DNA from: Minisyncoccia bacterium
Lineage (GTDB): Bacteria > Patescibacteriota > Minisyncoccia > Phycocordibacterales > GWA1-40-21
DNA: 58,041 bases
Direction of reading: 5' to 3'
Assembly (NCBI GenBank): GCA_044346845.1
Contig: JBIIYK010000001.1
Location: forward strand, 1 to 58,041
How positions within the stretch are numbered: the first letter of the stretch is position 1; each line of letters starts with the position of its first letter. Shown here one piece after another: positions 8,701-35,522 of the stretch. The notes beneath the pieces were generated by a model. That model had not been told where the DNA came from. It searched no databases and saw only the letters and a program-made list of their open reading frames with translations. The position numbers were made by a program, and so were the translations under genes.

Positions 8701-11493
8701 CTTTGTCATAAATATTTGAAATATAAAGGGGTGGCCCATGATTTAGTTCTTTTAAACGAATATCCTTCCAGTTACATAAAATCTTTTGAAGATGAGGTGG
8801 ATTTTCTAATTCGTTATAACCAATCAGCCGTCGGTAAAGTGGTGCGTGGTGGAATATTTCATATTAAAACCTCCCATATATCTCCATCTGATAGGGATAA
8901 GCTTATTTCTTTAGCAAAAATATTGCTTGATAGTAAACTAGGTACTATTGAACAACAGATTTTGTCAATTTTGCAATCAAGCACAAGGATGCCGCTTGCT
9001 CGGCTTAAACCAATCAAAAAAGTTATTTCATCTGGTAAGGATATTTTTCCCGATCTCAGTAAATTAAAATTCTTTAATGGGTTAGGAGGTTTTAATGAAG
9101 AAACTAACGAATATGTTTTGAATGTGAATTATAAAACATCCCTTTATACTCCTAGTCCATGGGTAAATATTATTGCAAACAAAAATATTGGTTTTGTAAT
9201 TACAGAAAGTGGCTCAATGTACACCTGGCTTTTTGATAGTTATGACAATCGTCTTACTAAAAGATTGGATGACCCTCTTCTTGATAGAAGTAGCGAGGTG
9301 TTTTATTTGAGAGATGAAGAGACTGGAGAATTCTGGAATCCTACCCCTTTGCCTATAAAAAGTTTGCATACATATACTGTTAAGCATGGTGTTGGATATA
9401 CAGAAATAGGACACCGAAGCCGAGGTATTAATCAAGTCATGCTGACTTATGTTCCCAAGACTGACGGTGTAAAAATAGTTAAATTTAAATTTACCAATAC
9501 AAGTAAGGTTTCTAAAAAACTATCACTCACAGGATTTTTTGAAATGTCTTTGGGCGGAGCTAATAGAGAATATGTAAGGGATTATTTAAAGACAGAGATA
9601 GATGAAAAAACTGGCGCAGTAATTGTTAGGAATATTTTTGGTGAATCATTCAAGAACACTCTCGCTTTTGTGGATTTAAACAATGGTAATAGTTTGGTTA
9701 CTAATGATCGTGATGAATTTCTTGGTAAAAATGGTGGAATAGATAATCCTGCCTGTTTACATCGTGATAAACTATCAAATCTTATTTATGAGGATGTAGA
9801 CCATTGTGTAGCTCTTCAGACGTTTTTTGATCTTGCACCTAGCGCGGAGGTAGAGATTACGGCGTTAATTGGCGGTGGTCATTCTGTTGCTGAGATTGAG
9901 GATCTTCTAGTGAAATATAGAAATATTTCCCAAACCGAGACTTCCTTAAAAGAAGTTAAGGGTGATTGGTTAGATGTTTTGAACAAAATTCAGATAAAGA
10001 CCCCTGATGAATCCTTGAATATTTTGTTTAATCAGAGATTGCTATATCAACTTATTTCCTCACGCCTCTTGGCTAGGACGGGTTATTATCAACCATCAGG
10101 TGCTTATGGTTTTCGTGATCAGCTACAGGACTCTCTGGCTTTAATTTGGAGCAAACCAGAGATGACAAGAGAAATCATTCTCAAAGCTAGTCGGCATCAA
10201 TTCCTAGAAGGTGATGGGCAAAATTGGTGGCACGAACATAATAATTTTGGTGTCCGTAACGCCTTTTCTGATCATCAATTGTGGTTAGCTTATGTAACCA
10301 GTTATTACTTAGAGATTACTGGTGATGTAAAAATTCTTGACGAAAAGGAATCTTATTTAAAGGCTCCTCTTCTAGATTTTATAAATAATCCACACTGGGC
10401 CGGCGTGCCTGAAGTTGATACTGAGAAATACGATCTTTATGATCATTGTCTGCGAGCGTTAGAGAAAACTTTTGTTTTTGGTAAAAATGGTTTACCCCTT
10501 ATTGGTAATGGTGATTGGAATGATGGTCTTAATAGAGTGGGGGAAAAAGGACTAGGCGAGAGCGTCTGGCTTGGCTGGTTTCTCTATACCGTGATTAATA
10601 AATTTATTCCCTATATTAAACATCGGGGTGATCATGAATTAGTGAAAAGATATGAAACTACCGCTCGGAACTTACAGGCGGCCCTAGAGAAAAAAGCTTG
10701 GGATGGTAAGTGGTATAAACGAGCTTTCTTTGATAATGGCGTTGCCCTAGGGTCACATTCTAATAGAGAGTTTAAAATTGATTCTATTTCCCAAAGTTGG
10801 TCAGTTATTTCACATGGCGCAAAAATAGATAGAAGTAAACAGGCTATGGCCTCAGTTAATAAATATTTGTTACAGGATAATAATTTGTTACTTCTTCTTT
10901 CTCCAGCGGTAAAAGACACCGAGATGGATCCTGGTTATATTAAGGACTATCCAGCTGGTGTGCGTGAAAACGGTGCTCAATACAATCATGCTGCTCTCTG
11001 GTCAGCCCAGGCTTTTGCTGAATTAAACGATCCTACTTCCATGATGAAGATTATAGACAGTGTTAATCCAATCAAAAGATCAGACGATAAAATTAAAGCT
11101 TCTTTATATAAAGTTGAGCCATATGTGGTAGCTTCTGATATCTATGCCAAGCCAGCGGAGGCGGGGAGAGGCGGTTGGACCTGGTATACTGGCTCAGCTG
11201 GGGTAATGTATAAAACTATTTTAGAGAATATTCTAGGTTTGAAAATTAAGGCAGATAAAATGGAAATTAATCCATGTATTCCAAAAACCTGGACGGATTT
11301 TTCTCTTATTTATAGTCATAAAAAAACTAAATACAATATCCAGGTTCTTAATAGTTCTAACTCTTTTGCTAATTTTCCTTCAAAGAAAAATGAGGTTACT
11401 AAGAAAATAAAAGTAGATGGAATTGTTTTGTCTCACCACATTATCCATTTATTGGATGATGGTGGGGAACACAAGATTGAAGTTGAATTATAG
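2728..11493 (+). CDS. ndvB: cyclic beta-1,2-glucan synthase-like giant protein (GT84 transferase + central domain + C-terminal GH94 phosphorylase)
   Basis: 2921 aa. TM cluster near aa 395-470. GT84-type motifs LTIDEDTRLPKDS, LSHDLLEG and RWIRGDWQ. C-terminal GH94-type motifs FRDQLQD and GNGDWNDGLN. Length and domain order match Cgs/NdvB/ChvB. Confidence 0.85.
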   Translation: MNALKDENGLSIKIKKKAQDLGEKVLIVSKPEKAKNFLSLIKRDAVQTKKTYNKLIGQVKIYKHLTHEVESIFDNYYIVDSAISDILNTDVGKGFKNLVQFEKKPDIFIPRMHFILSELLKVTEYKIDRESLYLFLRIYQTKAHISIRELSFVPFFLRIILTENIERTMYKTVASLNDFKEAEYWFGQIVKRGDDKGKDYSKITSDLTLKYGVVPINLGFYLLQRLSQYGPDTRPIVKWLKLNLLKQGIDISDLAEIENKRQNDISNQIFNTINSLRWINQVRWDDFVVDVNIVDSFLIKDPTGIYASLDQASQSAYRNEVVKISDQAGIYESEVVKVALRLCQQSLADNKLTDNPENHVGFYLVGGGRAELEKKIGYQKPFLEKLQSFVIKNSSMVYVSTIFSINFILTFIFFTSFTLLINQTTAFFVLIFLAFIINCDVAINLVNIFISSLIPVRALFRLDLSSGVSLKQATFVVIPSMFRGGNDASALLRRLEVNFLGNNAENVYFALLMDFKDSKTEKTVFDQNLIDQICLGIEELNNKYPGTVKKFYLFFRKRVWNPQENVFMGWERKRGKLREFNLFLRNKRETSYVGSLPVDLPHIKYVLTIDEDTRLPKDSAIKLIGCIDHPLNRPVIDLSSGRVKSGYGIIQPRMTTKFSQAGATLFSRLFSSAAGIDSYSGPVADVYQDLFNNSIFYGKGIYDVDVMEVVIGDRIPENQVLSHDLLEGLYTRVGFATDISLFEGFPESYREYILRMNRWIRGDWQIIGWLSNNISRGKGFSLSDKWKIFDNLRRSILPIFIVCFVLFSYLVFPDLSFSPIFYALLIVGSPFIISYLFKLLEWPKEMSLFMKINSIFSNLGSVIWQTLFRFIFILDQAVTSFGAVSVSMFRMVFSRKHMLLWQNSHEVSKSLRGSLDEFIYIMWSTQIISLIGLFVVFNPEGFFLHLTLILWFFSPLFAYGISQKEKAYQHKVHDLKLLRKIACRSSRFFLELSSREGNRLIPDHYQEEPLINSPAATSPTNIGMHLLSNFTAYDLGYISFSNLLERTSELCENLDSLERFNGHFYNWYDIRTLQPLAPKYVSSVDSANLLLAIITLKRGILDILDKPLINKSSLEGFVDVLAVLAEDADLISKDYSISKSERRLARHIYNETDFVLNKFLSFPAVPSIDYFTKTLNIFSDFNEKIKKIISNLNLSLDKGLSNNIFSSVEHFNTLLKQQVEELSINMSYYQKRRTQPAVRNEKKNQLLIEALKDISLKLDLVPSLEYLCGSLKKEVENLNLVSLIHSSALDNNEKENMEHWYHQVINALSLAEKQAAKSKAKYSRVILSLDTFFDETDFAFLYNKERGLFHIGYNVTYGKIDNSYYDFLASEANSISFVSIIKKQVPVKHWFYLGRKLVRLDMKNVLLSSWGGSLFEYLTSLIFYKVHKESLLGHTAKLAIESHVKYGQKHKVPWGMGESAYSALDLNNNYQYQIFGHPSLGFKRDLKDYLVVAPYTTIMSLAFKPRAAISNLRRMIKSKFIGRYGFYDAIDYTSTLYNSTTPKDNQPAKIYYAHHQGFSLQALSNQINNDRIHSLFISDPRVESLDTLFEEKIPSSIPARPIENIERLKSEYLVNGDSDVEVKQFIPLHTSYPRQAFISNGSYRVNISNSGAGGSKVADLSLTRFREDTVAETLGQFIYLQDTVSGDIWSPTTLPCNVSSGKNKIEYFENKARFTKIHNDLESSLTVAVAPDSDVELRSLTVTNHSKDKKSFKVTSYGEVSLSRGDEDLHHPAFEKLFIKSEFWPKYNALVYTRPNKTKRGTNLYFVHKVSISPAAEVEPVHTTLRSEFVSRGGFMRLPDVLLSDNKYLKSGVGHNLDPIFCFQNKIELKSNETVTINYVNIFGDSKDDLIRNLRKYSGQKNINQAIKKSDKLGIEIIDSMGISRDQALNYQALASRLLAPHYSLQTKKFEADTAEAAVQTLWRLGVSGDLPILVVRFYDMKDLAVVKNILLCHKYLKYKGVAHDLVLLNEYPSSYIKSFEDEVDFLIRYNQSAVGKVVRGGIFHIKTSHISPSDRDKLISLAKILLDSKLGTIEQQILSILQSSTRMPLARLKPIKKVISSGKDIFPDLSKLKFFNGLGGFNEETNEYVLNVNYKTSLYTPSPWVNIIANKNIGFVITESGSMYTWLFDSYDNRLTKRLDDPLLDRSSEVFYLRDEETGEFWNPTPLPIKSLHTYTVKHGVGYTEIGHRSRGINQVMLTYVPKTDGVKIVKFKFTNTSKVSKKLSLTGFFEMSLGGANREYVRDYLKTEIDEKTGAVIVRNIFGESFKNTLAFVDLNNGNSLVTNDRDEFLGKNGGIDNPACLHRDKLSNLIYEDVDHCVALQTFFDLAPSAEVEITALIGGGHSVAEIEDLLVKYRNISQTETSLKEVKGDWLDVLNKIQIKTPDESLNILFNQRLLYQLISSRLLARTGYYQPSGAYGFRDQLQDSLALIWSKPEMTREIILKASRHQFLEGDGQNWWHEHNNFGVRNAFSDHQLWLAYVTSYYLEITGDVKILDEKESYLKAPLLDFINNPHWAGVPEVDTEKYDLYDHCLRALEKTFVFGKNGLPLIGNGDWNDGLNRVGEKGLGESVWLGWFLYTVINKFIPYIKHRGDHELVKRYETTARNLQAALEKKAWDGKWYKRAFFDNGVALGSHSNREFKIDSISQSWSVISHGAKIDRSKQAMASVNKYLLQDNNLLLLLSPAVKDTEMDPGYIKDYPAGVRENGAQYNHAALWSAQAFAELNDPTSMMKIIDSVNPIKRSDDKIKASLYKVEPYVVASDIYAKPAEAGRGGWTWYTGSAGVMYKTILENILGLKIKADKMEINPCIPKTWTDFSLIYSHKKTKYNIQVLNSSNSFANFPSKKNEVTKKIKVDGIVLSHHIIHLLDDGGEHKIEVEL

Positions 11494-12138: not shown

Positions 12139-15100
12139 GTGGACTTTACAGAAAGATATAAAAAGTTAAATAAGAATCAGAAAAAGGCGGTGGATGCTAT
12201 AGAGGGTCCAGTGCTTGTTGTGGCTGGTCCAGGTTCTGGAAAGACCGAGATTTTGAGCTTGCGGGTAGGTAAGATACTGCAAGAAAGCCAAATTTTAGCT
12301 TCTAATGTTTTGTGTCTAACGTTTACTGAGTCTGCCTCGGTGAATATGAGAAACAGACTTTCTGCTCTTATTGGCACCGAGGCCTACAGAGTTGCGATTC
12401 ACACTTTTCATAATTTTTGTGTAGATATAATTCAGAAATATCCAGAATTTTTTTATAGTGGGGCTTTTTTCTCACCCGCAGATGCGCTTACTCAGACACA
12501 GATAATGCAAGAAATTTTTGAAAGTTTGCCGCACAATCATATTCTTAAATCAGAACATCCAGATCAAGGCTTTGTCTATTTGAAGAGTGTTTTATCTACC
12601 ATTAGTTACCTAAAAAAAGCTGGTATTTTTCCAGATGAGTTTAGAAATATCATTTTACATAATCAAAAGTCTTCAAAAGAGATTGACCTTGTCTTGCAGG
12701 AAACTTTTTCTGACAGGGTGGGTAAGGGTAGTATTGAAAAAGCGTTTGGGGTGGTAGAAAAAATATTAAGGCTAGCTGGAAAGTCAAAAGTAGATTTTCC
12801 ATCACCTTATTTTAAAAGTTTGTCAGAAACCATTGCGGTCTCACTTAAAAAAGCTTGTGATGAAGCTTTGGCAGAAGATAGAGCTACCCCTTTATCAAAA
12901 TGGAAGCAGGACTGGATGAAGAAAAGTGATAATGGTGAAAGTATTTTGAAAGATAGTGTATATATAGACAAAATGTTTGCCGTTGCGGATTTATATGAAA
13001 AATACAAAGCAGAAATGCATAAGAGAGGTTTTTATGATTTTGATGACATGATTCTTGATGTTATTTCTGTATTGGAAAAATTTCCATCTGTTAGATATGA
13101 GATACAAGAGCAGTATCAATATGTTCTGGTGGATGAATTTCAGGACACCAACGAGGCTCAGATGCGGTTGTTAAAGCTTATAACTGATGCGCCGGTAAAT
13201 GAAGGTAAACCAAATATAATGGCCGTAGGAGATGATGATCAGGCGGTCTATAAGTTTCAAGGAGCCGAACTTTCAAATATTTTAAATTTCAAAAAGTTTT
13301 TCAAAGATGTGGAGGTTGTGACGATGACAGAAAATTACCGTTCTACGCAAGATATTTTGGACGTTGCCTCTCATATTATGAGAAAGGGTGAAGAAAGGCT
13401 CGAAAAGATATTACCGGAAATTAAAAAAGATTTGATAGCTTCCAATAAAGAGATTGGAAGTGGGGAAATAACCCACAGAGAATTTCCCACGCTGGCCCAC
13501 GAATATCATTTTGTCTCAAGGGAAATAAAAAAGAAAATTGATTCTGGTGAAAAGCCCGAAGAGATAGCAGTTATAGCCAGAAAACATTATCAACTGGAAA
13601 GTTTGGTCCCTTACTTGCAAGGTGTTTCTGTTCCAATCAGATATGAAAGAGAGCAGAATGTTTTTAAGGAACCGTATATTGCGCAGCTGATTATTATTGC
13701 CAGATTCGTTGCGTCACTTGCTGATAAGAGAAATGATGAAGCAGACGAATTTTTACCTAAGATTTTGAGTTTTCCATTTTGGAAAGTTGAAAGAGAAGAG
13801 ATATGGAAAGTCTCTTTGGCTTCTAGGAGAGACACAAATGAAGGAGCCGGTAAAAATTGGCTTGAAGTAATGCTTCAGTCTCCAGTAAAACAAGTAACTG
13901 AAATTGCCAATTTTTTGGTTGACCTTGGGTCACGTGCTCAGTATGAGCCACTTGAGAAAATCCTTGATGAAATTGTTGGAGCACATTTACCCGTGTCTTC
14001 AGAGTCAGAAGATTCTGAAGTGGATGATGAGGATGGAATTTCTTTAAAGAATAAAAAGACTAAAGATTTTATCTCACCATTTAAGGAATTTTATTTTAGC
14101 AAAGAAAAATTTAAGCACGCTCGAGCGGAATATCTGACTTTCCTTTCAAGCTTGCGTGTATTTATAAATGCTCTTAGGGAATATAAAGAAGGTGAAATTT
14201 TGTCTATGAGAGATCTGGTTAATTTTGTAGATCTGCATGAGAAAAATGATATCCCCCTAAATGATCAAAGTCCATTTGCCAAACTTGAGGGGGCGGTAAA
14301 TTTGTTGACCGCGCATAAAGCTAAAGGCCTTGAATTTAAGATTGTTTTTGTACTGTCTTGTCAGGATGATATTTGGGCCGGGAGAGGTGGGGGATCAAAA
14401 CTGGTTTTGCCTTCAAACCTACCTATAGAACCAGCTGGGGATACGGAAGATGACCAATTAAGACTGTTTTACGTGGCTATAACACGCGCTAAGAGGTTTT
14501 TATACCTAACATCATATATGACAGAGGAAGGTGGAAAAGAGGCTCAGAAACTCAGATTTTTGGTGGCTAAAGATGGTGAGGAAGAGGTGTTGAAAAGAGA
14601 AGCTTTGAAGAGGCTTTATTTTGGAAATGTAAAAATGGATGACGAAACTTTGCCGGAAGCCAGTGAGGTTTTAACTGCTTCATGGCTCAGATATCATACA
14701 CCACCTTTTATGGGCTCTGAAGACAAACTTCTAAAATCCCTTTTGTCAGAATATAAACTCTCGGTTACACATTTAAATAATTTTCTTAATGTCACAAAGG
14801 GGGGACCACAATATTTTCTTGAACAAAACTTACTCAGGTTTCCACAGTCAAAAAGTTCTTCTGGGGCCTATGGTTCAGCCATCCATTATACAATGGAAAA
14901 AGTTTCTTTATATCTGAAAAAAGAAAATAAAGTTCCAGAAGATAAAGAAATCTTAGACTGGTTTGTACAGTTTTTGAAAAAAGAAAGAATTTCTCCAGAT
15001 GATTATAAGAATTTTAGAGAAAAAGGTATAGTAGATTTATCAGTTTTTTTAAAAGAAAAAAAAGGTGGTCTTAACATAAAGGATATTGTTGAATTTAATT

Positions 15101-24602: not shown

Positions 24603-24698
24603 AGTATTTTTTTATTTGCTAAAATTTTGCAAATTAATTAATCTAGTAAGACCTATATTATAGCATAAATAATTTTTATGTATTATAATGATATGTGT

Positions 24699-25565
24699 AT
24701 GAGAAAAAGTAATACTCTCTTATTTACTTTAATGTTGGTTCTGATTATGGCTTTTTTGGTGGCTATTAATTTCTTTAAAGATTCCCAGTATTTGATTGGT
24801 ATGGATAAATCAGCGGCGCAGATTATTTCTATTGCCTTGTTTGTTTTGATTATTTTATTATTTATTTATCGCGAGTTAGAAAATAAGAAAATCCAAAACG
24901 ATTTTATTGCTGTAGTGGCTCATAAATTTAGAACTCCTTTGACTGGTATACACTGGACTATAGACATGCTTCAGAAAGATATGACTTTGTTAGAAAAGAA
25001 AGACTTACTTTTAGAGATGCAGAAAGCTAATAACCGTCTTATGGAGATAGTAGATTTATTGGTGGACTTTGCCAAGTTTGATAAAAGGTTGATTTACGCT
25101 TCCGAAGTCGTTTCTCTAACGGATGTCGTAGCTACTTCTTTTAGTAAATATTCAGCAGCCATTAAGAATAAAAATATAAAATTTTCTGTGGATTCAACCA
25201 AGGAAGTACCAGAGATTATGGCTGATAAATCAAAGATTCAATTTGTAATAGATATGCTGATAGATAATGCTGTTAAATATACCCCCAAAGATGGTTCTGT
25301 CTCGGTTACGTTTGAAGCTGATAGTAAGACTGCTACGGTAAAGATAACGGATAGTGGTATTGGTATGAACTTCTTTGATAGCAAGAGAATATTCGGTTAT
25401 TTTTTCAGGGCTAAGAACGCGAAACTTATGGATACTGAAGGTTTAGGTCTTGGACTTTTTACTGCTCAAAATATTGTCGAGAGACATCAAGGTAAGATTT
25501 GGGCTTCATCACCTGGAGTGAATAAAGGCTCTACTTTCTTCGTTCGCCTGCCCATAAAAAGATAA
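24699..25565 (+). CDS. sensor histidine kinase (two TM segments, no obvious sensor domain)
   Basis: H-box VAHKFRTPLTGI and HATPase N/G boxes (DNAVKYTP, DSGIGM, GLGLGL). Start placed at MRKSNTLLF, 9 nt after TATAAT (24684-24689). The track ORF begins at 24678. Confidence 0.8.
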   Translation: MRKSNTLLFTLMLVLIMAFLVAINFFKDSQYLIGMDKSAAQIISIALFVLIILLFIYRELENKKIQNDFIAVVAHKFRTPLTGIHWTIDMLQKDMTLLEKKDLLLEMQKANNRLMEIVDLLVDFAKFDKRLIYASEVVSLTDVVATSFSKYSAAIKNKNIKFSVDSTKEVPEIMADKSKIQFVIDMLIDNAVKYTPKDGSVSVTFEADSKTATVKITDSGIGMNFFDSKRIFGYFFRAKNAKLMDTEGLGLGLFTAQNIVERHQGKIWASSPGVNKGSTFFVRLPIKR

Positions 25566-25630: not shown

Positions 25631-25756
25631 TTCCGTGGTAGTTGAGATGCGAACACTTGGAGCATCTCAAAGACGGAGCACGACGGTGCGAGTCGGGGTT
25701 GCGAAATTTTTCACCAGAAAAATATTTGTAACCAGCGGTTCCGCGAGCTACCACAA
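25631..25756 (+). ncRNA. GC-rich structured element E, closed by GTGGTAG/CTACCAC, with tRNA-Asn-like ends (family with 27538-27675 and 39742-39832)
   Basis: It begins with TCCGTGGTAG, identical to the tRNA-Asn 5' end. It contains three hairpins: TTGAGATGC/GCATCTCAA, GCAC-GACG-GTGC and GGTTGCGAAATTTTT/AAAAATATTTGTAACC. No ORF. Clearly GC-rich against the AT-rich flanks (not counted; the related insert at 27541-27600 counts 50%). Confidence 0.35.
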
Positions 25757-25771
25757 AAGAATATGCAATAT

Positions 25772-25846
25772 TCCGTGGTAGCTCAGCGGTAGAGCGATCG
25801 CCTGTTAAGCGATTGGTCGTAGGTTCGATCCCTACCCACGGAGCCA
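25772..25846 (+). tRNA. tRNA-Asn (GTT), CCA encoded
   Basis: Hand-folded cloverleaf TCCGTGG-TA-GCTC-AGCGGT-AGAGC-G-ATCGC-CTGTTAA-GCGAT-TGGTC-GTAGG-TTCGATC-CCTAC-CCACGGA-G-CCA. Confidence 0.9.
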
Positions 25847-26052
25847 TGTATATATTTGATATACATTTTTAATGGGGATGCCTAAATATAAATCGGGAGT
25901 AAAATATTTATTCTGGTATTTTTTGGTTATTGCATATTTTAGACCAGAAATTGCACCGGAATATGGCATTGAAAAAGAGGAGGGAGATTGAATTATATAA
26001 TTAGAAATGATATATTTAATGTATTGTTTTATTAATTTTAATTTGTAAGTGT

Positions 26053-26532
26053 ATGCAGGTAAAAGAGAAAATAATTTATTCATCGATAATCTTTCTGGCT
26101 TTTATAGCGGCTATCGTTATTCTTTTTAGTGTGTTTAATTTATACAAAACACTTGCTCCAAATTGGGGGATTGGTAATTCAATGTCTGATGCTCCTGGCT
26201 ATTATGCTTCTTGTCAAAAGTTTAAGAATAACTATGAAATAGGTGTTAATATAAATACTTATAATAAAGGGGTAGACAATGTTGTATTAGAGTTGGTCTC
26301 AAACGGTGGTATGACTTCAGATAAAGAAAAAATTGAAATTCCATTTATATCACAAAACTCCTCTGATATTGGAATATTTACTCTTACCGGCGAACCGACA
26401 AAAAGTTCTGTTATAAGGATAACTTACGTTATGAAAGGATTTTGGGGTCAGAAAAATTATTCATCAATAATTACACCAGGTCCAGATTGTTCAGTGACAG
26501 ACAATCCCGAACTTATGCCTAAACCGTATTAA
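26053..26532 (+). CDS. hypothetical signal-anchored or secreted protein (cassette 1)
   Basis: 159 aa. N-terminal TM segment IIYSSIIFLAFIAAIVILFSVF. No recognisable domain. Confidence 0.55.
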   Translation: MQVKEKIIYSSIIFLAFIAAIVILFSVFNLYKTLAPNWGIGNSMSDAPGYYASCQKFKNNYEIGVNINTYNKGVDNVVLELVSNGGMTSDKEKIEIPFISQNSSDIGIFTLTGEPTKSSVIRITYVMKGFWGQKNYSSIITPGPDCSVTDNPELMPKPY

Positions 26533-26542
26533 TTTATTATAG

Positions 26543-26639
26543 AAAACAATTTCTAACTCCATACACCAGATGGAGCAAAATTTCTAGCCTTATAAATCAT
26601 GGGTTATTTTTCTTACCCGTGATAGGATTCGAAACTATT
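26543..26639. repeat. junction element A: intact imperfect palindrome of about 97 bp between cassettes
   Basis: The left arm AACAATTTCTAACTCCAT (26545-26562) matches the reverse complement of the right arm ATAGGATTCGAAACTATT (26622-26639) at 12 of 18 positions. The left half recurs at 27437-27474 and 28419-28457, and the right half at 27728-27791. Confidence 0.6.
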
Positions 26640-26679
26640 ATTTTTTGTCATATATAGATTCTAATGTATAATCTTAAAT

Positions 26680-27408
26680 ATGAAAAAAAGTGCCTTAATC
26701 ATCTTAGATGGGACTATGAAAGGAGCATATACTGTTGGTATTTTGCGTGTTTTTTACGAAAAATTAGGTCTAAATTATTTTGATTCGATATATTCTTTTT
26801 CCGTGGGCATATTTGAGCAAGCATTTTTTGTTGCCAACCAGCCGGAAACAATGGAAAACACCTGGCGAAATTATGTCAGTGGAAGTAAATTGATTAACCC
26901 TTTTAATGTATTTAGAGGTAAGGCAATTTTAGATCTAGATTATCTTACTGGGTTATTTCAAACAGAAATGTCTTTGCTCAATATTAAACAAATGCTTATA
27001 TCTCCAATAAATATTTATTGTTTTGTTACAGATCATAGTACACGCTTACCTGTGATACTTAATCTAAAGGAAGGGGAAAATATCTTTGATATTATGCGTG
27101 CTTCTTGTGCTGTCCCTCTCTTATATCCTCCTGTGAAAATTGGGAACAAAAAATATATTGATGGGGTATTTGCATGTAAGAAAAAAATTATGATGGAGAT
27201 CAAACGAATTTGTGACCGGTTCGATGAGATTATTGTAATAAGTAATTCAGGTAGTATTAGATTTTTACCTACTAATCCAAAAATTAAATTACTTAGGCCT
27301 TCTGATATGCCATTGTGGCATCCTCTTGATACTAATCGTTCCAGAATTATTAAAACAATTGAACAAGGAAAGATGGATGCGTTAGAGTTTTTGCAAAATC
27401 AAGGATAG
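26680..27408 (+). CDS. patatin-like phospholipase (cassette 2)
   Basis: 242 aa. Oxyanion-region LDGTMKGAYTVG, nucleophile-elbow-like SFSVG, and catalytic Asp motif IDGVFA. It has its own promoter: TTGTCA-N16-TATAAT (26645-26672), 7 nt before the ATG. Confidence 0.7.
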   Translation: MKKSALIILDGTMKGAYTVGILRVFYEKLGLNYFDSIYSFSVGIFEQAFFVANQPETMENTWRNYVSGSKLINPFNVFRGKAILDLDYLTGLFQTEMSLLNIKQMLISPINIYCFVTDHSTRLPVILNLKEGENIFDIMRASCAVPLLYPPVKIGNKKYIDGVFACKKKIMMEIKRICDRFDEIIVISNSGSIRFLPTNPKIKLLRPSDMPLWHPLDTNRSRIIKTIEQGKMDALEFLQNQG

Positions 27409-27436
27409 GTGTTTGACTATGTGCAAACATAATCAG

Positions 27437-27474
27437 TAAAACAAGTTCTAACGTCCTCTAGCCAGTGGAGCAAA
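27437..27474. repeat. junction element B, left half
   Basis: TAAAACAAGTTCTAACGTCCTCTAGCCAGTGGAGCAAA aligns with the left half of A and with C (GTCCTCTAGCCAGTGGAGCAAA vs ATCCTCTAGTCACTGGAGTAAA, 19/22). Confidence 0.6.
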
Positions 27475-27727
27475 TGAAAACCCCTTGAAAAAGGGTGTTT
27501 TTATTTGCTCCGTGAGAAAGTGATATGTATCACTTTCGTGGTAGGCGATTAGAAAATCGAACCGAGAGGAGTCGAACGGCAGAGCGTTATGAGGTTAGCA
27601 GACCGAATCGCGAGCCAGTGCCCAGACAAAGTTTTTTGACGAAAAAACCCTAGTCGAGGGAGATATCCCTACCCATAGGACTGCGATTTAAACAAATTGA
27701 GTACAATTTAATAAATCGGGGGCCCAC
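27475..27727 (+). mobile_element. 253-bp GC-rich non-coding insert I splitting junction element B, flanked by direct GGAGCAA repeats
   Basis: Filled site versus empty site: A reads TGGAGCAAAATTTCTAGCC without interruption. B reads TGGAGCAAA[253 bp]GGAGCAAGTTTTCTAGCC. The insert carries a terminator-like hairpin (27467-27511), a 9-10 bp hairpin (27517-27538), a structured core (27538-27675) and fragments identical to the tRNA-Asn 3' end. Confidence 0.5.
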
Positions 27728-27791
27728 GGAGCAAGTTTTCTAGCCTTATAAATCAAAGGTTATTTTCCTTACCCCGAGGCTAAATTCAAAC
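27728..27791. repeat. junction element B, right half
   Basis: GGAGCAAGTTTTCTAGCCTTATAAATCAAAGGTTATTTTCCTTACCCCGAGGCTAAATTCAAAC aligns along its whole length with 26574-26635 of element A. Confidence 0.6.
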
Positions 27792-27794
27792 CTC

Positions 27795-27824
27795 TTGCAT
27801 AAGATTGTGATATTGTGATATAAT
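27795..27824 (+). promoter_or_regulatory. sigma70-type promoter TTGCAT-N18-TGATATAAT driving a tiny unit
   Basis: TTGCAT at 27795-27800 and TGaTATAAT at 27816-27824. A tandem ATTGTGAT ATTGTGAT repeat and the GTGATA/TATCAC inverted repeat overlap it. Confidence 0.5.
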
Positions 27825-27846
27825 ACTGTTATCACTATGAAAGAGA

Positions 27847-27885
27847 CCCTTGTGTAGATCTGTCTACACCGGGGGCTTTTTCTTT
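27847..27885 (+). terminator. intrinsic terminator of the tiny plus-strand unit, abutting the NYN gene stop
   Basis: CCCTTGTGTAGA-TCTG-TCTACACCGGG stem followed by GGCTTTTTCTTTT. Confidence 0.55.
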
Positions 27886-28373
27886 TAGGAAGAGACTTTA
27901 TTGGAAAATTTATGATAATGCTCGTTTAAAAAAGTAATTTCAATATTTTTATTTCGTAGTAAAAAAGAGCATTTCTTTTTATCAGGGGCAATAATTTGAC
28001 TCATGGATTTTTTCTCTTTCAAAAATTCTACCAAACAACCAAAATCACCATCGCCAGTAATTAAAATGCAAGAAGAAAATGATTTCTCATAAAAATCAGA
28101 CGTAGCTTTTAATACCAATTCAGCGTCACAGTTTCCTTTCACTTTCTCTCCAATAGAGACTGTTTGTTTAAAAACTAAAATATAGCCACAACTTTGTAAG
28201 TGTTCGTAAAACTTTACTCTTTCCGGTACTAAACCAATGAATAAATAGACAAAATTTGGATTGTATTTTTGACGAAGCCAGCCTCTAAATTTTTTATAAT
28301 CAATTTCAAAGCCGAGCTCTTTGGCTGATCGATATAAATTATTACCGTCGATGTAGATATTTATTTTATTCAC
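27885..28373 (-). CDS. NYN-domain (LabA/DUF88-like) putative ribonuclease (cassette 3)
   Basis: 162 aa. IYIDGNNLY and ITGDGDF acidic motifs. GTG start, 6 nt downstream of an extended -10 TGATATAAT (minus strand, 28380-28388). Confidence 0.7.
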   Translation of the reverse strand: MNKINIYIDGNNLYRSAKELGFEIDYKKFRGWLRQKYNPNFVYLFIGLVPERVKFYEHLQSCGYILVFKQTVSIGEKVKGNCDAELVLKATSDFYEKSFSSCILITGDGDFGCLVEFLKEKKSMSQIIAPDKKKCSFLLRNKNIEITFLNEHYHKFSNKVSS

Positions 28374-28418
28374 GCGGTGATTATATCATAAATATTTAAA
28401 ATAACGGTTAAATATATA

Positions 28419-28457
28419 GAAAATAGTTTCTAATATCCTCTAGTCACTGGAGTAAAA
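28419..28457. repeat. junction element C (left half only)
   Basis: GAAAATAGTTTCTAATATCCTCTAGTCACTGGAGTAAAA aligns with the left halves of A and B. Confidence 0.55.
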
Positions 28458-28458
28458 T

Positions 28459-28486
28459 AAAAGACCACCGTTTGGTGGTTTTTTTG
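28459..28486. terminator. terminator-like hairpin following junction element C
   Basis: ACCACC-GTTT-GGTGGT stem with a T-run after it and an A-rich run before it. Confidence 0.5.
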
Positions 28487-33997: not shown

Positions 33998-34031
33998 GGT
34001 TGGTTTTTGACAACAGAGAAAGGAAAGTGTT

Positions 34032-34409
34032 ATGAAGAGTACTGAAAACGGTAGTGTGAAGCAGGTGGTTTGGGGTATCTCTATTTTGTTTGTGGTATTT
34101 TTTGGGTCACTTTTTGCGCTTGAGGTTTGCGTTAAGGTGGATCCGTTACCGCCCGATACAGTTACTAAAACTGTGGCGGTCACGAACCAGGTCGCAAATA
34201 CGAATGGTTTGGATGAGGTGGTTCACCGGAATACTGCTTCGGGGTATCAAGGTGGCCGGGTGATGGTCATAGCCGATCTATCTTCAGCCTTAAATTTAGC
34301 CAAGAGGAAATCCTCGGAGGCTGATCGAAGGGCGAGGAATGGAGAAGGTGATGATGCTTTTAATTTCAAAACAGAGGAGGTGTTCTCAAGTTCAAGTACG
34401 AATCAGTAA
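34032..34409 (+). CDS. GC-rich signal-anchored protein of unknown function
   Basis: 125 aa. TM segment VVWGISILFVVFFGSLFAL. Purine-rich SD-like AAAGGAAAG upstream. Confidence 0.5.
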   Translation: MKSTENGSVKQVVWGISILFVVFFGSLFALEVCVKVDPLPPDTVTKTVAVTNQVANTNGLDEVVHRNTASGYQGGRVMVIADLSSALNLAKRKSSEADRRARNGEGDDAFNFKTEEVFSSSSTNQ

Positions 34410-34465
34410 TGGGTTGGGGTGGAAAGATTTAGAATGGAAGATTAAAAAAACAAAGGGAGATACGA

Positions 34466-35488
34466 ATGAAGAAGATTGTGATGGCGATGCTGTTGGTTCT
34501 TGGTTTGGTTCAAGCGGGCCTGGCCCTGACGGAAGAACAGCGCTATCGGCGCTACGTGGTGTCCGCGATCGAGGAGGTCATTAACGGTGGTGCCTTGAAG
34601 GGGCAAATCTACGAATCAATCCCGGGCCAGAACTGGCCTCAGGAACCGAAGATGATCTCCTTCGGTGACTACTTCAAGAACGGGAGGGCCCAGGCTTTGA
34701 TGGACTGCGATGTGAGCTGGTATCAAGGTTGGGCGACTTGGAATAATTTGTCCAACGTACGGCTTTTTAGAAGTCAGTACATGGAGCAAACCTACATTAG
34801 CGCCGGCCTGCAAACAATGCCATTCATTATGAAGGTTGAGTCCGCTCGACTGATGAAGTTGAATGTACAAGGAGCTCTTCTTAATGATGGTGATGAACTT
34901 TGGTTTAACGGTGCGCGAGTTTATCAGAACGAAGCGGGCATCTGGCAGGTCTATGCCTACAAACCCTGGAACCTCATTGGCGCGGAAGTTGAAGTGGTTT
35001 GGACTGGGCGCGGTGGCTGGAGGATTCAAATGGATGAAAATTCATTTAGCGGGGTCATTAACTTGAATACCGCCCTCATGGATCAGACCCTCTTGGCCCC
35101 GACCAAGCTCAAGGCCATTTCATTCCTTGCCGAAGGTTCGGAATTGGAAGAAGGATTGGTGCGGTATACCGGCCGATCCTATGATGCGGATCTGGGATGT
35201 ACGGTGCTGAACTTGCAGTCCTTGTTCGATAAGGACATGAAGGAATTCACTTTGGTCCTGCGTGGTTTGGATGAACAATCCGGCCAGATGGTGAACTACT
35301 ACACCGTCTGCCTGCAGGATGTGGGCGATGACTTCATGGTGCCCTTGGGCGATACATATATTCGCCCGTGGACCGAAGTGAAGGTTTACCTCATGGATCC
35401 CCGGACTGGCGACTACATGCAGAAACGGCTGGATGCCCAGGATCTGTGGCGGGACGTGCCGGTGAACGTTGTGACCCCCATGAAGTAA
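34466..35488 (+). CDS. GC-rich secreted protein of unknown function
   Basis: 340 aa. Cleavable-type signal peptide MKKIVMAMLLVLGLVQAGLA. SD AGGGAG 7 nt upstream. Hand count gives 62% GC at 34501-34560. Confidence 0.7.
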   Translation: MKKIVMAMLLVLGLVQAGLALTEEQRYRRYVVSAIEEVINGGALKGQIYESIPGQNWPQEPKMISFGDYFKNGRAQALMDCDVSWYQGWATWNNLSNVRLFRSQYMEQTYISAGLQTMPFIMKVESARLMKLNVQGALLNDGDELWFNGARVYQNEAGIWQVYAYKPWNLIGAEVEVVWTGRGGWRIQMDENSFSGVINLNTALMDQTLLAPTKLKAISFLAEGSELEEGLVRYTGRSYDADLGCTVLNLQSLFDKDMKEFTLVLRGLDEQSGQMVNYYTVCLQDVGDDFMVPLGDTYIRPWTEVKVYLMDPRTGDYMQKRLDAQDLWRDVPVNVVTPMK

Positions 35489-35522
35489 CGTCCTTTCTCG
35501 ATGAGTTGAACAGAAGCAGTGT

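Follow-up and report, generated by a model that had tools for sequence, protein, structure and literature searches.

A folded, protein-less insert framed by both ends of tRNA-Asn, and its probable family in a Minisyncoccia bacterium and related CPR bacteria

The 253-bp insert at 27475-27727 of the window (the whole 58,041-nt stretch of Minisyncoccia bacterium DNA analysed here) is probably one copy of an undescribed, protein-less, strongly folded element family built on the two ends of tRNA-Asn. Sequence comparison indicates that the family sits just after tRNA-Asn-type 3' ends in related CPR bacteria and that the insert is not a one-off, since relatives carry homologous units at the same place by a conserved NYN gene. 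The two acceptor strands of the unit are predicted to pair, closing it into a tRNA-like multi-arm fold. The best reading is a structured element that derives from tRNA-Asn and is inserted or duplicated at ...GGAGC ends.

Two junction elements in the window offer an empty and a filled state. Element A (26541-26618, plus strand; repeat search D3/D6, nhmmer left-motif match at 26541-26579, sequence) is the 'empty' site, in which a tRNA-3'-like left motif ending in GGAGCAAA is joined directly to a terminator-like hairpin, TAGCCTTATAAATCATGGGTTATTTTT. In element B, the left motif AAGTTCTAACGTCCTCTAGCCAGTGGAGCAAA (27437-27475, plus strand; nhmmer 1.2e-08) and the right half, a terminator-like hairpin TAGCCTTATAAATCAAAGGTTATTTT plus spacer (27728-27797, plus strand; repeat D3, alignment A4), are split by the 253 nt of 27475-27727, with GGAGCAA at each junction. 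Because the repeat pairs (26543-26579 against 27438-27474, 73%; 26572-26618 against 27728-27774, 89%) place the abutting halves of A either side of 27475-27727, A is contiguous and B is split. With the insert removed and its halves joined, element B aligns end to end with element A. Repeat search and sequence thus agree with the earlier note, which described A as uninterrupted and B as carrying a 253-bp insert between GGAGCAA copies. An empty form of element B would read ...GGAGCAA joined straight to GTTTTCTAGCC, with 27474 next to 27728.

The left-half motif TTCTAAY-N10-16-TGGAGYAA occurs three times in the window (26551, 27446 and 28428) against an expectation of 0.01. Element C (28418-28486, plus strand; nhmmer, terminator scan), a left motif and terminator beyond the NYN gene, is conserved at the related loci L094 and L095. 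The left motif of element B sits where L155 and L134 have the 3' end of tRNA-Asn (positional equivalence: L134), and the best-preserved left motif, upstream of NYN in L094, resembles the tRNA-Asn 3' end to a degree that none of 2000 shuffles attained. The terminator in the right half of element B is homologous to the one that follows a real tRNA-Asn in L151. The insert has no ORF, as stated earlier, and the longest stop-free stretch in 27409-27884 runs to 48 codons. An earlier count of 50% GC holds for 27541-27600, and the core (27537-27675) has 51%, but the whole 253 nt average 44.7%, against 36% in the window.

The template for the unit's frame is tRNA-Asn (GTT) at 25772-25846 on the plus strand (ARAGORN; Rfam tRNA, 71.5 bits). 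Maximal exact direct matches to this gene run colinear along the insert: CGTGGTAG at 27537 (tRNA positions 3-10), the 11-mer ATCCCTACCCA at 27665 (positions 57-67) and CCCACGGAGC at 27723. Exact matches of at least 8 nt contain 29 bases, a level reached in 0 of 1000 shuffles. Two of the tRNA fragments reported in the earlier note are real, that at 27666-27675 being 1 nt longer than described (11 nt from 27665) and that at 27723 matching tRNA-Asn exactly. They form a single tRNA 3' segment, TCCCTACCCACGGAGC, which is split by a 47-nt hairpin in the window and unsplit in L094 and L173. The remaining fragment had been taken for an inverted T-arm/acceptor copy reaching 27568, a reading dropped on the strength of the exact matches for a direct copy of the tRNA-Asn 5' end. 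Only the 8-mer ATCGAACC (27556-27563) matches the T-loop in inverted orientation; alone it is not significant, and the stretch stops at 27563.

The window unit spans approximately 27472 to 27732, with a folded part at 27503-27738, and its parts lie on the plus strand. The terminator hairpin comes first, then a strand that copies the 5' acceptor strand of tRNA-Asn, then a 9-bp hairpin (Hp) and CGTGGTAGG; next come a variable structured interior, a 5-bp hairpin (H3) followed by AGAT, and the T-stem/acceptor 3' strand. Measured against the order of parts in the family (CGTGGTAGG-type 5' frame, CCCTRCC...CGGAGC 3' frame), the window unit has all of them, in order. The terminator hairpin T1 (27467-27511; inverted repeat I1, 18 nt, 89%) has the outer stem GGAGCAAA/TTTGCTCC, and a terminator scan marks 27482-27495 plus a T run. 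T1 is 94% identical in L094/L159 despite an unrelated upstream gene, and so goes with the unit, not with whichever gene lies upstream. Because its descending arm doubles as the 5' strand of the closing stem, T1 and the closing stem are mutually exclusive. That strand, the acceptor-like TTGCTCCGTG (27505-27514; inverted repeat I4, 10 nt), is 100% complementary to 27725-27734 and includes TCCGTG, positions 1-6 of tRNA-Asn. Hp (27516-27537; inverted repeat I5, covariation) is a palindromic hairpin of 9-10 bp, GAAAGTGATA/TATCACTTTC. The 5' frame (27537-27545), the exact match at tRNA positions 3-10, is conserved in L094, L173, L134 and L155.

The GC-rich interior (27546-27647) folds, and its hairpins include CGATT/AATCG (27546-27559) and a U/A hairpin, GTTTTTT-GACG-AAAAAAC (27631-27648). 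H3 (27648-27652/27656-27660), which with AGAT occupies 27648-27664, aligns without gaps to L094, L173 and L155. In the window, four of its five pairs form and the minimum free energy (MFE) structure favours an alternative hairpin, AGGGA/TCCCT. By analogy, GGTAGG of the 5' frame could pair with CCTACC at 27668-27673; the window MFE contains neither this pairing nor H3, both of which are drawn by analogy. Part 1 of the 3' frame (27665-27675) is the exact 11-mer. It is followed by the AT-rich 47-nt arm (27676-27722; folds, inverted repeat I3), which splits the acceptor 3' strand, is flanked by CCCA, and has a 29-nt counterpart at the equivalent point in L155. Part 2, CCCACGGAGCAA (27723-27734; tRNA positions 64-73; inverted repeat, exact match), provides the closing stem with its 3' strand and also forms the right-hand GGAGCAA. 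The 47-nt arm and the Hp palindrome were also considered as copies of dispersed mini-repeats, and neither recurs within the window.

The segment 27503-27738 folds into a closed, multi-arm structure with an MFE of -81.2 kcal/mol (z = -5.93; 0/200 shuffles), and its minus strand gives -76.8 (z = -5.1). A 12-bp acceptor-like stem closes the predicted fold. Compared with a tRNA acceptor stem (7 bp plus discriminator), 27505-27514 and 27725-27734 pair perfectly, with TCCGTG/CACGGA plus G as in tRNA-Asn. Covariation, drawn from 4-5 distinct sequences, supports the arms. Seven of the ten Hp pairs have changed on both sides and 94% are paired across five distinct units including that of the window; slid-alignment controls gave 0-2 double changes. 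All five H3 pairs covary (95% paired; window, L094, L173 and L155, gap-free). For a long hairpin, H2, together with H3, comparison of L094 with L173 finds 11/26 pairs doubly changed (slid controls 0-2), and five units give 16/26 in an alignment that had been fitted to the model. G-U pairs conserved in H2 point to the tRNA-sense strand. Because all Hp changes run from Watson-Crick to Watson-Crick, Hp might instead be a DNA hairpin or an operator-like palindrome. At L134:7643-7760, GGCAGG/CCTGCC replaces GGTAGG/CCTAC, which keeps the pairing.

With L094 and L173 as its source, a covariance model matches L173:1-100, L134:7643-7760 and L134:14069-14180 with E values of 1e-11 to 1e-22. The window interior cannot be aligned with the L094, L173 or L134 interiors, and covariance models R1 and R2 of the L094/L173 type miss the window unit (14 bits at E = 1, then nothing), a negative search that rejects an L094/L173-type interior for it. 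Because the interior model misses it, only its frame, Hp and H3 place the window unit in the family. The structured element at 25634-25762, upstream of tRNA-Asn, was rejected as a paralogue after nhmmer returned no significant similarity. The two have a common architecture and a few motifs in common, for which homology is not claimed.

Four other lineage types have homologous units at the orthologous site next to NYN, with filled sites in L094/L159, L173 and L155. Between the left motif and the NYN promoter, L094/L159 is colinear with the window but has a different interior of 83 nt and a contiguous TCCCTACCCACGGAGCC, and the L173 unit is of the same type. L155 reads tRNA-Asn, terminator, TTTCCGGAGGAG, hairpin, CGTCAGGG, interior, GAGATCCCTGCCTC, the 29-nt arm, CTCCGGAGCCA and NYN promoter; its unit is predicted to form a four-way junction, and, as in the window, an additional hairpin arm interrupts its acceptor 3' strand. 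L134 holds a tandem array straight after its tRNA-Asn, to which the unit at 14069-14180 belongs, plus a distant copy. Besides element A, empty-site alleles exist at L095-97, where the left motif at the orthologous NYN-adjacent site leads to the terminator via a 33-nt hairpin, and at L151, where a real tRNA-Asn and the homologous terminator precede the NYN module. L151 and L155 form an empty and filled pair at a real tRNA-Asn. The earlier note had proposed a search for additional copies and empty sites, and both exist (copies in L173 and L134; empty sites at L095-97 and L151).

One copy is present in the 58-kb window, two in L173 and at least four in L134, all diverged. The filled state is common to several lineages and is thus old instead of the product of a recent event. 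All three same-species contigs are filled, so the site is without within-population polymorphism. The contigs of two close NYN homologues, L182 and L183, stop just beyond NYN, before the unit position. Other window genes did not lead to further junctions: the best relative of the histidine kinase (24678-25565) in the genome collection is 34% identical and not syntenic, and patatin homologues (49% identity, Nomurabacteria) were rejected as junction relatives because they lie in another context and have no junction motifs.

Units measure 110-260 nt, start after GGAGC and end in GGAGC. In L155 and L134 they begin directly after the end of a real tRNA-Asn; in L094, L173 and the window they begin after a degenerate tRNA-3'-like left motif, which in the window lies 1.6 kb from tRNA-Asn. 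The frame follows each contig's own tRNA-Asn, reading TCCGTG / CCCTACCCACGGAGC in the window, TCCGGAG / CCCTGCCTCCGGAGC in L155 and TCCGCGG / CCTACCCGCGGAGC in L134. As boundary repeats, copies of GATCCCTGCCTCCGGAGC flank the L155 unit on both sides, with the hairpin splitting the second, and L134 repeats CCTACCCGCGGAGC. The window boundaries share GGAGCAA only, and the right one holds a 17-nt tRNA segment in two pieces. GGAGCAA is not a target-site duplication: its right copy is the acceptor 3' end of the unit, and the left one lies at the end of a degenerate motif resembling a tRNA 3' end.

The cloverleaf of a tRNA gene, with D, anticodon and T arms, is missing from the window unit (ARAGORN, Rfam RF00005). 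ARAGORN and Rfam find only the tRNA-Asn at 25772-25846; with E relaxed to 10, 27475-27735 still returns nothing. No Rfam 15 family reaches its gathering threshold on the window unit or on the units of L094, L173, L118 and L151 with their flanks, and permissive Rfam thresholds across the window and five loci yield nothing for the units. ARAGORN finds no tmRNA in the window, and the unit is without a T-loop. Comparison of L094 and L173 reveals no conserved reading frame among units. No integrase, transposase or recombinase domain was detected in the 39 ORFs of the window or in 12 ORFs of L134, L173 and L094, and the tested ORFs of these four include no Y1 transposase or TnpB. The window unit has an inverted repeat, but not the terminal inverted repeats and variable target-site duplication of a MITE: the flanking GGAGC does not vary between copies and belongs to the tRNA-like end. 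The hallmarks of an integron attC cassette are likewise missing: no integrase is present, and the TCTAAC of the left motif is followed by no inverse core. A literature search on tRNA-like RNAs or tRNA-linked islands in CPR found nothing specific.

The neighbouring gene (27885-28373, minus strand) belongs to the NYN/LabA family (Pfam PF01936, 5.8e-16), whose homologues form more than 1000 clusters and are 79-96% identical among the matches listed. A promoter-like TTGCAT-18-TGATATAAT and a predicted short hairpin transcript (27795-27895, plus strand; sequence) converge on its 3' end. This promoter/hairpin module also lies beside NYN in L094-L099, with a covarying hairpin, and the NYN-module pattern recurs at 81 metagenome loci, with no match in the viral collection. 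tRNA-Asn is repeatedly linked to the module (L151, L118/166/175, L140 and L155). In the window, single genes (159 aa, patatin and NYN) are each followed by a hairpin-bearing motif of approximately 40 nt, beside a fixed anchor.

These associations invite the explanation that the unit is a vertically inherited tRNA-like small RNA gene, not mobile, that acts together with the NYN/antisense-hairpin module, serving the NYN nuclease, for instance, as substrate, decoy or regulator, with copies and arrays arising by ordinary local duplication. The conserved structure fits this explanation, as do the recurrent link between tRNA-Asn and the module and the position of the units in the window, L094/L159, L173 and L155, where they adjoin the NYN promoter/hairpin module. 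It is nonetheless rather unlikely: approximately 5 of roughly 60-70 distinct NYN loci have a unit, units remain in L173 and L134 where NYN is truncated, some lie 3-9 kb from the module in the array behind tRNA-Asn, and the orthologous site is empty in L095-97 although the NYN there is 95% identical to that of the window. An inert scar, in which a tRNA-Asn pseudogene or att remnant of old island integrations and deletions surrounds a junk interior of incidental structure, is an equally improbable account. In its favour, integrase and promoter are absent, the window has a single copy, and the interior differs wholly between the window and L094 while the flanks are 84-94% identical; asn-tRNA hot spots are classic places for direct repeats of the tRNA 3' end together with modules that have no integrase (PMC2801613). 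Yet Hp, H2 and H3 stay paired across lineages through compensatory changes, as does the doubly substituted pairing at L134:7643-7760, the 5' acceptor copy is complementary to the 3' strand with both tracking the tRNA-Asn of their own contig, and the extra arm occupies the identical position in the window and L155. The earlier note's view of a scar or small mobile element survives in part. A discrete non-coding unit, tRNA-Asn-3'-derived repeat bounds and filled and empty junctions all stand, whereas three covarying helices and the closed tRNA-like multi-arm fold contradict an unstructured scar.

The same note also entertained a native cassette end, whereby 27467-27511 would correspond to the arrangement at 28419-28486, nothing was inserted, and A and B only resemble empty and filled sites. 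Left motif and hairpin do form a recurring junction, element C shows the same left motif and then a terminator, and the filled arrangement in L094 and L173 is old. Empty junctions already weaken this account, however, because the left motif joins the right-half terminator without a unit in element A and L095-97 and because L151 and L155 form their pair at a real tRNA-Asn; the hairpin, moreover, is conserved alongside the unit and not the upstream gene (94% in L094), leaving the account very doubtful. Still less probable is a non-autonomous single-stranded DNA hairpin element, IS200/IS605-derived or REP-like, inserted 3' of a fixed GGAGC without target duplication by a Y1 transposase encoded elsewhere. 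Such an element would explain the GGAGC before and at the end of every unit, the hairpins near both ends (terminator on the left; H3 or the extra arm on the right), the strand-specific placement, the size of 110-260 nt, and the pairing of the left flank GGAGCAAA with the internal TTTGCTCC. It sits poorly with the lack of Y1 transposase or TnpB among the tested ORFs, with copies that are few and diverged instead of many and near-identical, and with a 10-12 nt tRNA-specific frame that tracks the contig's tRNA-Asn and is foreign to the IS200/IS605/REP family.

Under the preferred reading of a tRNA-Asn-derived structured element, units would be gained and lost through recombination at the common GGAGC(AA) end, for which either an enzyme from another locus or crossing-over (short-homology or unequal) would be responsible. 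Several findings weigh against this reading: the window has one such unit, the same-species contigs are all filled, the tested ORFs include no integrase or transposase, and all but approximately 5 of roughly 60-70 distinct NYN loci are without a unit. Because no recombinase was found among the tested ORFs, the earlier proposal of a vehicle of site-specific recombination is inferred and not observed. Structural selection probably acts on the tRNA-sense strand, most simply on an RNA that would arise by read-through of the tRNA or of the upstream gene. Transcription of the unit is putative because a terminator precedes it and a sequence scan reveals no evident promoter between the terminator hairpin and the unit. 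RNase P, RNase Z and the CCA-adding enzyme recognise an acceptor-type helix of this kind, and the tRNA-like acceptor helix of such an RNA would offer a substrate to tRNA end-processing enzymes. A bolder version, distinctly unlikely, holds that this is a protein-less CPR mobile element that homes to tRNA-Asn-type 3' ends by carrying both acceptor/T-stem strands. Its target would be chosen by base-pairing within the folded RNA or single-stranded DNA of the element, catalysis would come from an enzyme acting in trans, for which the neighbouring NYN nuclease, unusually conserved, is a conceivable candidate, and the segments between tRNA-3'-like motifs (159-aa ORF, patatin, NYN) would be cassettes captured in the same way.

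Several known systems share features with the units. The tRNA-like domain of tmRNA, viral tRNA-like structures and mascRNA place tRNA ends around a foreign interior. As in these RNAs, the 5' and 3' ends of the units form the acceptor-type helix of a specific tRNA around an interior of other helices, but the units have no T-loop, D-arm, anticodon arm or tag frame, escape ARAGORN and Rfam, are multi-copy, lie at recombination junctions and are known here from sequence. REP/BIME repeats and IS200/IS605-derived palindrome-associated elements are short, protein-less, hairpin-rich and strand-specific and occur at gene ends; the units share all of these properties and likewise have no classic target-site duplication, whereas they are low-copy, change frame with the contig's tRNA-Asn and have no cognate transposase in view. 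Integron cassettes rely on the IntI integrase and on attC sites with RYYYAAC...GTTRRRY cores. The single genes of the window, each with its motif of approximately 40 nt in one orientation beside a fixed anchor, recall such cassettes, but there is no IntI and no RYYYAAC...GTTRRRY pair, NYN lies on the opposite strand, and the anchor is a tRNA gene.

At the asn-tRNA hot spot that holds the Yersinia-type high-pathogenicity island of Enterobacter hormaechei, islands are arranged in tandem, and integrase-less modules lie between 17-bp repeats of the tRNA 3' end (PMC2801613). There, too, the 3' end of tRNA-Asn is the site, copies of that end lie at every junction, one tRNA has several modules stacked behind it, and some modules are integrase-less or inverted (PMC2801613). 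In contrast, the units here are 110-260 nt long, non-coding and highly structured, reside in a CPR host, and also hold the 5' acceptor strand in pairing position with no integrase nearby; the left repeat of the window is a degenerate motif, with GGAGCAA alone in common.

The small genomes of CPR/Patescibacteria are poorly charted for non-coding RNA and mobile-element content. This locus presents a structured family outside Rfam that unites tRNA-integration-type junction repeats with a conserved, covarying tRNA-like fold, two features usually seen apart. The covariance model and the sequence frame can now be used to search complete genomes and metatranscriptomes. If transcribed, the unit would be a new RNA that mimics a tRNA, with a frame co-evolving with tRNA-Asn; if mobile, it would be unusually small for an integrative unit and would mark a cassette-like hot spot behind tRNA-Asn. 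In both cases, the unit accounts for the frequent assembly breaks beside the NYN gene in these organisms.

The 253-bp non-coding insert at 27475-27727 is a unit of a family of structured elements framed by pieces of tRNA-Asn. Junction element A (26541-26618) is contiguous and junction element B (27437-27797) is split by the insert, because both halves of A match the separated halves of B: a repeat finder pairs 26543-26579 with 27438-27474 on the left (73% match) and 26572-26618 with 27728-27774 on the right (89% match). GGAGCAA is present at both joints, and the left-half motif has three occurrences in the window and no others. These matches bear out the split described in an earlier note, and the tRNA-Asn-derived fragments reported there stand after correction. 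The insert and tRNA-Asn have three exact words in common, CGTGGTAG, ATCCCTACCCA, and CCCACGGAGC (tRNA positions 3-10, 57-67, and 64-73), in colinear order, a result reached by 0 of 1000 shuffles. The longest open frame in the insert region is at most 48 codons, in agreement with the claim that the insert holds no ORF. The GC content of 50% once given for it fits the core (51% at 27537-27675), while all 253 nt average 44.7% against 36% for the window. ARAGORN and Rfam call no tRNA and no Rfam family in the insert.

The window, low in GC, is a bacterial chromosome segment with housekeeping genes for HisRS, TruB, BipA, phosphoketolase, acetate kinase, MiaA, ParB, RelA/SpoT, topoisomerase I, DprA, and SerRS. 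It belongs to a CPR/Patescibacteria genome, since the closest named relatives of its proteins are from Candidatus Nomurabacteria, Paceibacterota, and Parcubacteria. The locus runs from a histidine kinase gene (24678-25565) through a structured element of ~130 nt (25634-25762, +), tRNA-Asn (25772-25846), a 159-aa ORF, element A, a patatin-like gene (26680-27408), element B with the insert, and an NYN/LabA gene (27885-28373, -) to junction element C (28418-28486). Elsewhere in the window, one 2921-aa ORF spans 2728-11493 (+), and two ORFs without a Pfam match (125 and 340 aa) lie at 34000-35500, just ahead of tRNA-Trp, with local GC rising to 43-48% over them.

The NYN gene is a useful anchor for finding relatives of the insert site. 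All same-species contigs (L081-L083, 99.9% identical) carry the insert. In the related loci L094 and L159, NYN is 94% identical to that of the window, phosphoketolase, acetate kinase, and histidine kinase are syntenic, and the stretch that begins at the left motif and reaches the NYN promoter runs colinear with that of the window. The left motif is followed there by a terminator hairpin as in the window (94% identical), TTTGCTTCGTGAG, a 9-bp palindromic hairpin of different sequence, CGTGGTAGG, an 83-nt interior that differs from the window's, an unsplit TCCCTACCCACGGAGCC, and a terminator with homology to element B's right half. Because the genes upstream of the window and L094 units are mutually unrelated and the hairpin is 94% identical, the terminator hairpin is part of the unit and not of the patatin gene, which argues against the earlier alternative that the left half and this hairpin are a native cassette end. 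L173 has a unit of the L094 type at the orthologous site. In L155, tRNA-Asn is followed by a terminator, TTTCCGGAGGAG, a hairpin, CGTCAGGG, a GC-rich interior of ~95 nt, GAGATCCCTGCCTC, a 29-nt hairpin, CTCCGGAGCCA, and the NYN promoter; this unit has the window's architecture, split 3' strand included, and its predicted fold is a four-way junction. Empty sites, for which a search had been proposed, are found as well. L151 has a real tRNA-Asn exactly where the unit would sit, then the homologous terminator and the NYN module, and in L095-97 (NYN 95% identical) the left motif is joined to the right-half terminator via 33 nt, with no unit. Filled and empty states can thus be compared both inside the window, as B against A, and from one genome to another (L094/L159, L173, and L155 versus L151 and L095-97).

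Additional copies, likewise sought in relatives, were recovered with a covariance model for which L094 and L173 were the source. On the L173 contig, it detects another unit at the contig edge; a further copy, at L134:7643-7760, has a left motif, terminator, and hairpin ahead of it; a third, at L134:14069-14180, lies immediately behind that contig's tRNA-Asn. This last copy is part of a ~680-nt array in which degenerate units follow one another in tandem, and several of them, though not all, have CCTACCCGCGGAGC or a variant at their end. Directly upstream of the tRNA-Asn heading this array, a small ORF of GIY-YIG endonuclease type (L134 14314-14685, -) ends. At L134:7880, the left motif stands exactly where, in the array, the GGAGC end of the preceding unit stands, and what follows downstream is almost the same sequence. 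The best-preserved left motif, upstream of NYN in L094, is similar to the tRNA-Asn 3' end (0 of 2000 shuffles); the similarity of the other six copies is not significant one by one. We take the motif to be a 3' end of tRNA type that has degenerated.

The frame of the unit tracks the tRNA-Asn of its own contig in the window, L155, and L134, both in the 5' acceptor copy (TCCGTG, TCCGGAG, and TCCGCGG, respectively) and in the 3' end (CCCTACCCACGGAGC, CCCTGCCTCCGGAGC, and CCTACCCGCGGAGC). The frame of the L134:7643-7760 unit is closer to an L155-type tRNA than to the tRNA on its own contig. This unit has GGCAGG / CCTGCC where others have GGTAGG / CCTAC, so that the pairing is kept through change on both sides.

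In the window unit, 27505-27514 is perfectly complementary to 27725-27734, and 27503-27738 has a predicted fold of -81.2 kcal/mol (z = -5.93), slightly weaker on the minus strand. A 12-bp closing stem, the palindromic hairpin Hp (27516-27537), a U/A hairpin (27631-27648), and a 47-nt arm appear in both the MFE and the centroid. Covariation supports the helices. Across five distinct units including the window's, 7 of 10 Hp pairs changed on both sides (94% of cells paired; slid controls 0-2), as did all 5 pairs of the small hairpin H3 (27648-27660) across the window, L155, L094, and L173 (95%; 0-2). For H3 together with H2, the long interior hairpin of L094/L173-type units, the count is 11 of 26 between L094 and L173 (90%; 0-2) and 16 of 26 over five units in an alignment fitted to the model (86%; 1-6). 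H2 holds conserved G-U pairs at several positions; read on the opposite strand, they would become A-C mismatches, which points to the tRNA-sense strand as the one whose structure is constrained. By analogy, we infer that the GGTAGG/CCTACC and H3 pairings form in the window unit, whose MFE uses alternatives to them. In the window and L134, not in L155, a single sequence serves as descending arm in the terminator hairpin and as 5' strand in the closing stem, making the two structures mutually exclusive.

The multi-helix element at 25634-25762 (MFE z = -6.3), with tRNA-Asn directly downstream on the same strand, has an architecture like the insert's, without significant sequence similarity to it and without an Rfam match. 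At the 5' end, it duplicates the leader of the tRNA together with positions 1-14; at the 3' end, it has GAGCTACCAC, which matches the reverse complement of tRNA positions 4-13 exactly. L118/L166/L175 carry a homologue ahead of their tRNA-Asn, in which 5 of 38 pairs show compensatory change and the 5' copy mirrors that tRNA's change from CCGTGG to CCGGGG.

The NYN protein (162 aa) has more than 1000 homologue clusters at 90% identity in CPR-type metagenomes, and the 120 matches listed are 79-96% identical. CPR proteins are not usually conserved to this degree, which suggests that the module is mobile or under strong selection. Beside the NYN 3' end (window 27795-27895, +) lies a promoter-like site that is conserved, TTGCAT-18-TGATATAAT, and a predicted hairpin transcript of ~55 nt (ATCACTATGAAAGAGACCCTT-hairpin-CGGGGGCTTTTTCTTT) converges on that end. 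A pattern for this promoter-hairpin module matches 81 metagenome loci (L101-L181), and its hairpin covaries in L098 and L099. Because the module is kept where NYN is a C-terminal remnant (L173, L134) or missing (L118), it might be an independent unit, antisense or small-RNA in nature and possibly of toxin-antitoxin type. In L176, the NYN module occurs twice in tandem ~900 nt apart (1446-1500 and 2344-2398, -), with an NYN ~48% identical to the window's.

NYN neighbours vary among the loci fetched. tRNA-Asn lies within ~1 kb of the NYN module, in either orientation, in L151, L155, L118/L166/L175, L140, and the window, a linkage far above chance; in L098, tRNA-Asp and tRNA-Met take its place. 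The tRNA-Asn of L140 adjoins the NYN module and is split in its anticodon loop by a group I intron (12733-13022, +; Rfam RF00028, 67 bits), its halves lying at about 12.7 and 13.05 kb by BLAST. Direct copies of the left motif flank NYN in the window and L094. Single, mutually unrelated genes stand between left motifs or units: the 159-aa ORF and patatin gene in the window (25847-28486), a 438-aa ORF in L173 (1-1740), and a 232-aa ORF in L094 (4919-5853). With the histidine kinase as reference, the whole motif-unit-NYN-motif block of L094 and L173 has the opposite orientation to that of the window. In its behaviour, the region behind tRNA-Asn resembles a cassette-style hot spot. Contigs with close NYN homologues (L182, L183, L083, and many pattern loci) often stop within ~50-200 nt of the NYN terminator or at the unit edge, L083 at window position 27726. 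This fits assembly breaks in a region that is repeated or varies between strains.

Among genomic systems, the closest analogue is the integration hot spot at asn-tRNA in enterobacteria, where stacked islands and integrase-less modules, some inverted, are delimited by six 17-bp copies of the tRNA 3' end (PMC2801613). The closest structural analogues would be RNAs that keep tRNA ends round a foreign interior. The unit does not qualify as a tRNA or tmRNA, as a member of any Rfam family, as a MITE whose target duplications vary, or as an integron attC, and its match to a tRNA-targeting integrative module is partial.

Units have one short tRNA-type end in common at their boundaries: a unit sits 3' of a GGAGC end and itself ends in GGAGC. 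They occur as absent, single, or tandem states, and copies multiply in tandem behind tRNA-Asn. Between lineages, the frame, Hp, and H3 are homologous and the interior turns over; in the window and L155, the interior is larger and GC-rich and an additional arm is present, and in L094, L173, and L134 the interior is shorter and can be aligned among these three. Units are probably gained and lost by recombination across the common GGAGC(AA) end, either through a trans-acting enzyme with site specificity, such as operates at other tRNA hot spots, or through unequal or short-homology crossing-over. The earlier observation is confirmed, and its interpretation as a recombination scar or mobile element at tRNA-Asn is partly supported: the unit is discrete, with tRNA-type ends and filled and empty sites, but scans of 39 window ORFs and of 12 ORFs from relatives show no recombinase domain.

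Compensatory change, G-U pairs included, keeps the helices, suggesting that the tRNA-sense strand is of importance in its folded form. No promoter is apparent ahead of the window unit. The simplest reading would be an RNA made by read-through past a leaky terminator hairpin, and the acceptor-like helix of such a putative RNA would offer determinants used by tRNA end-processing enzymes. The chief rival to this RNA reading, on the same data, is a role in recombination as single-stranded DNA. With comparative support from a handful of lineages, the unit is a new variant on tRNA-linked junction repeats and tRNA-like RNAs.
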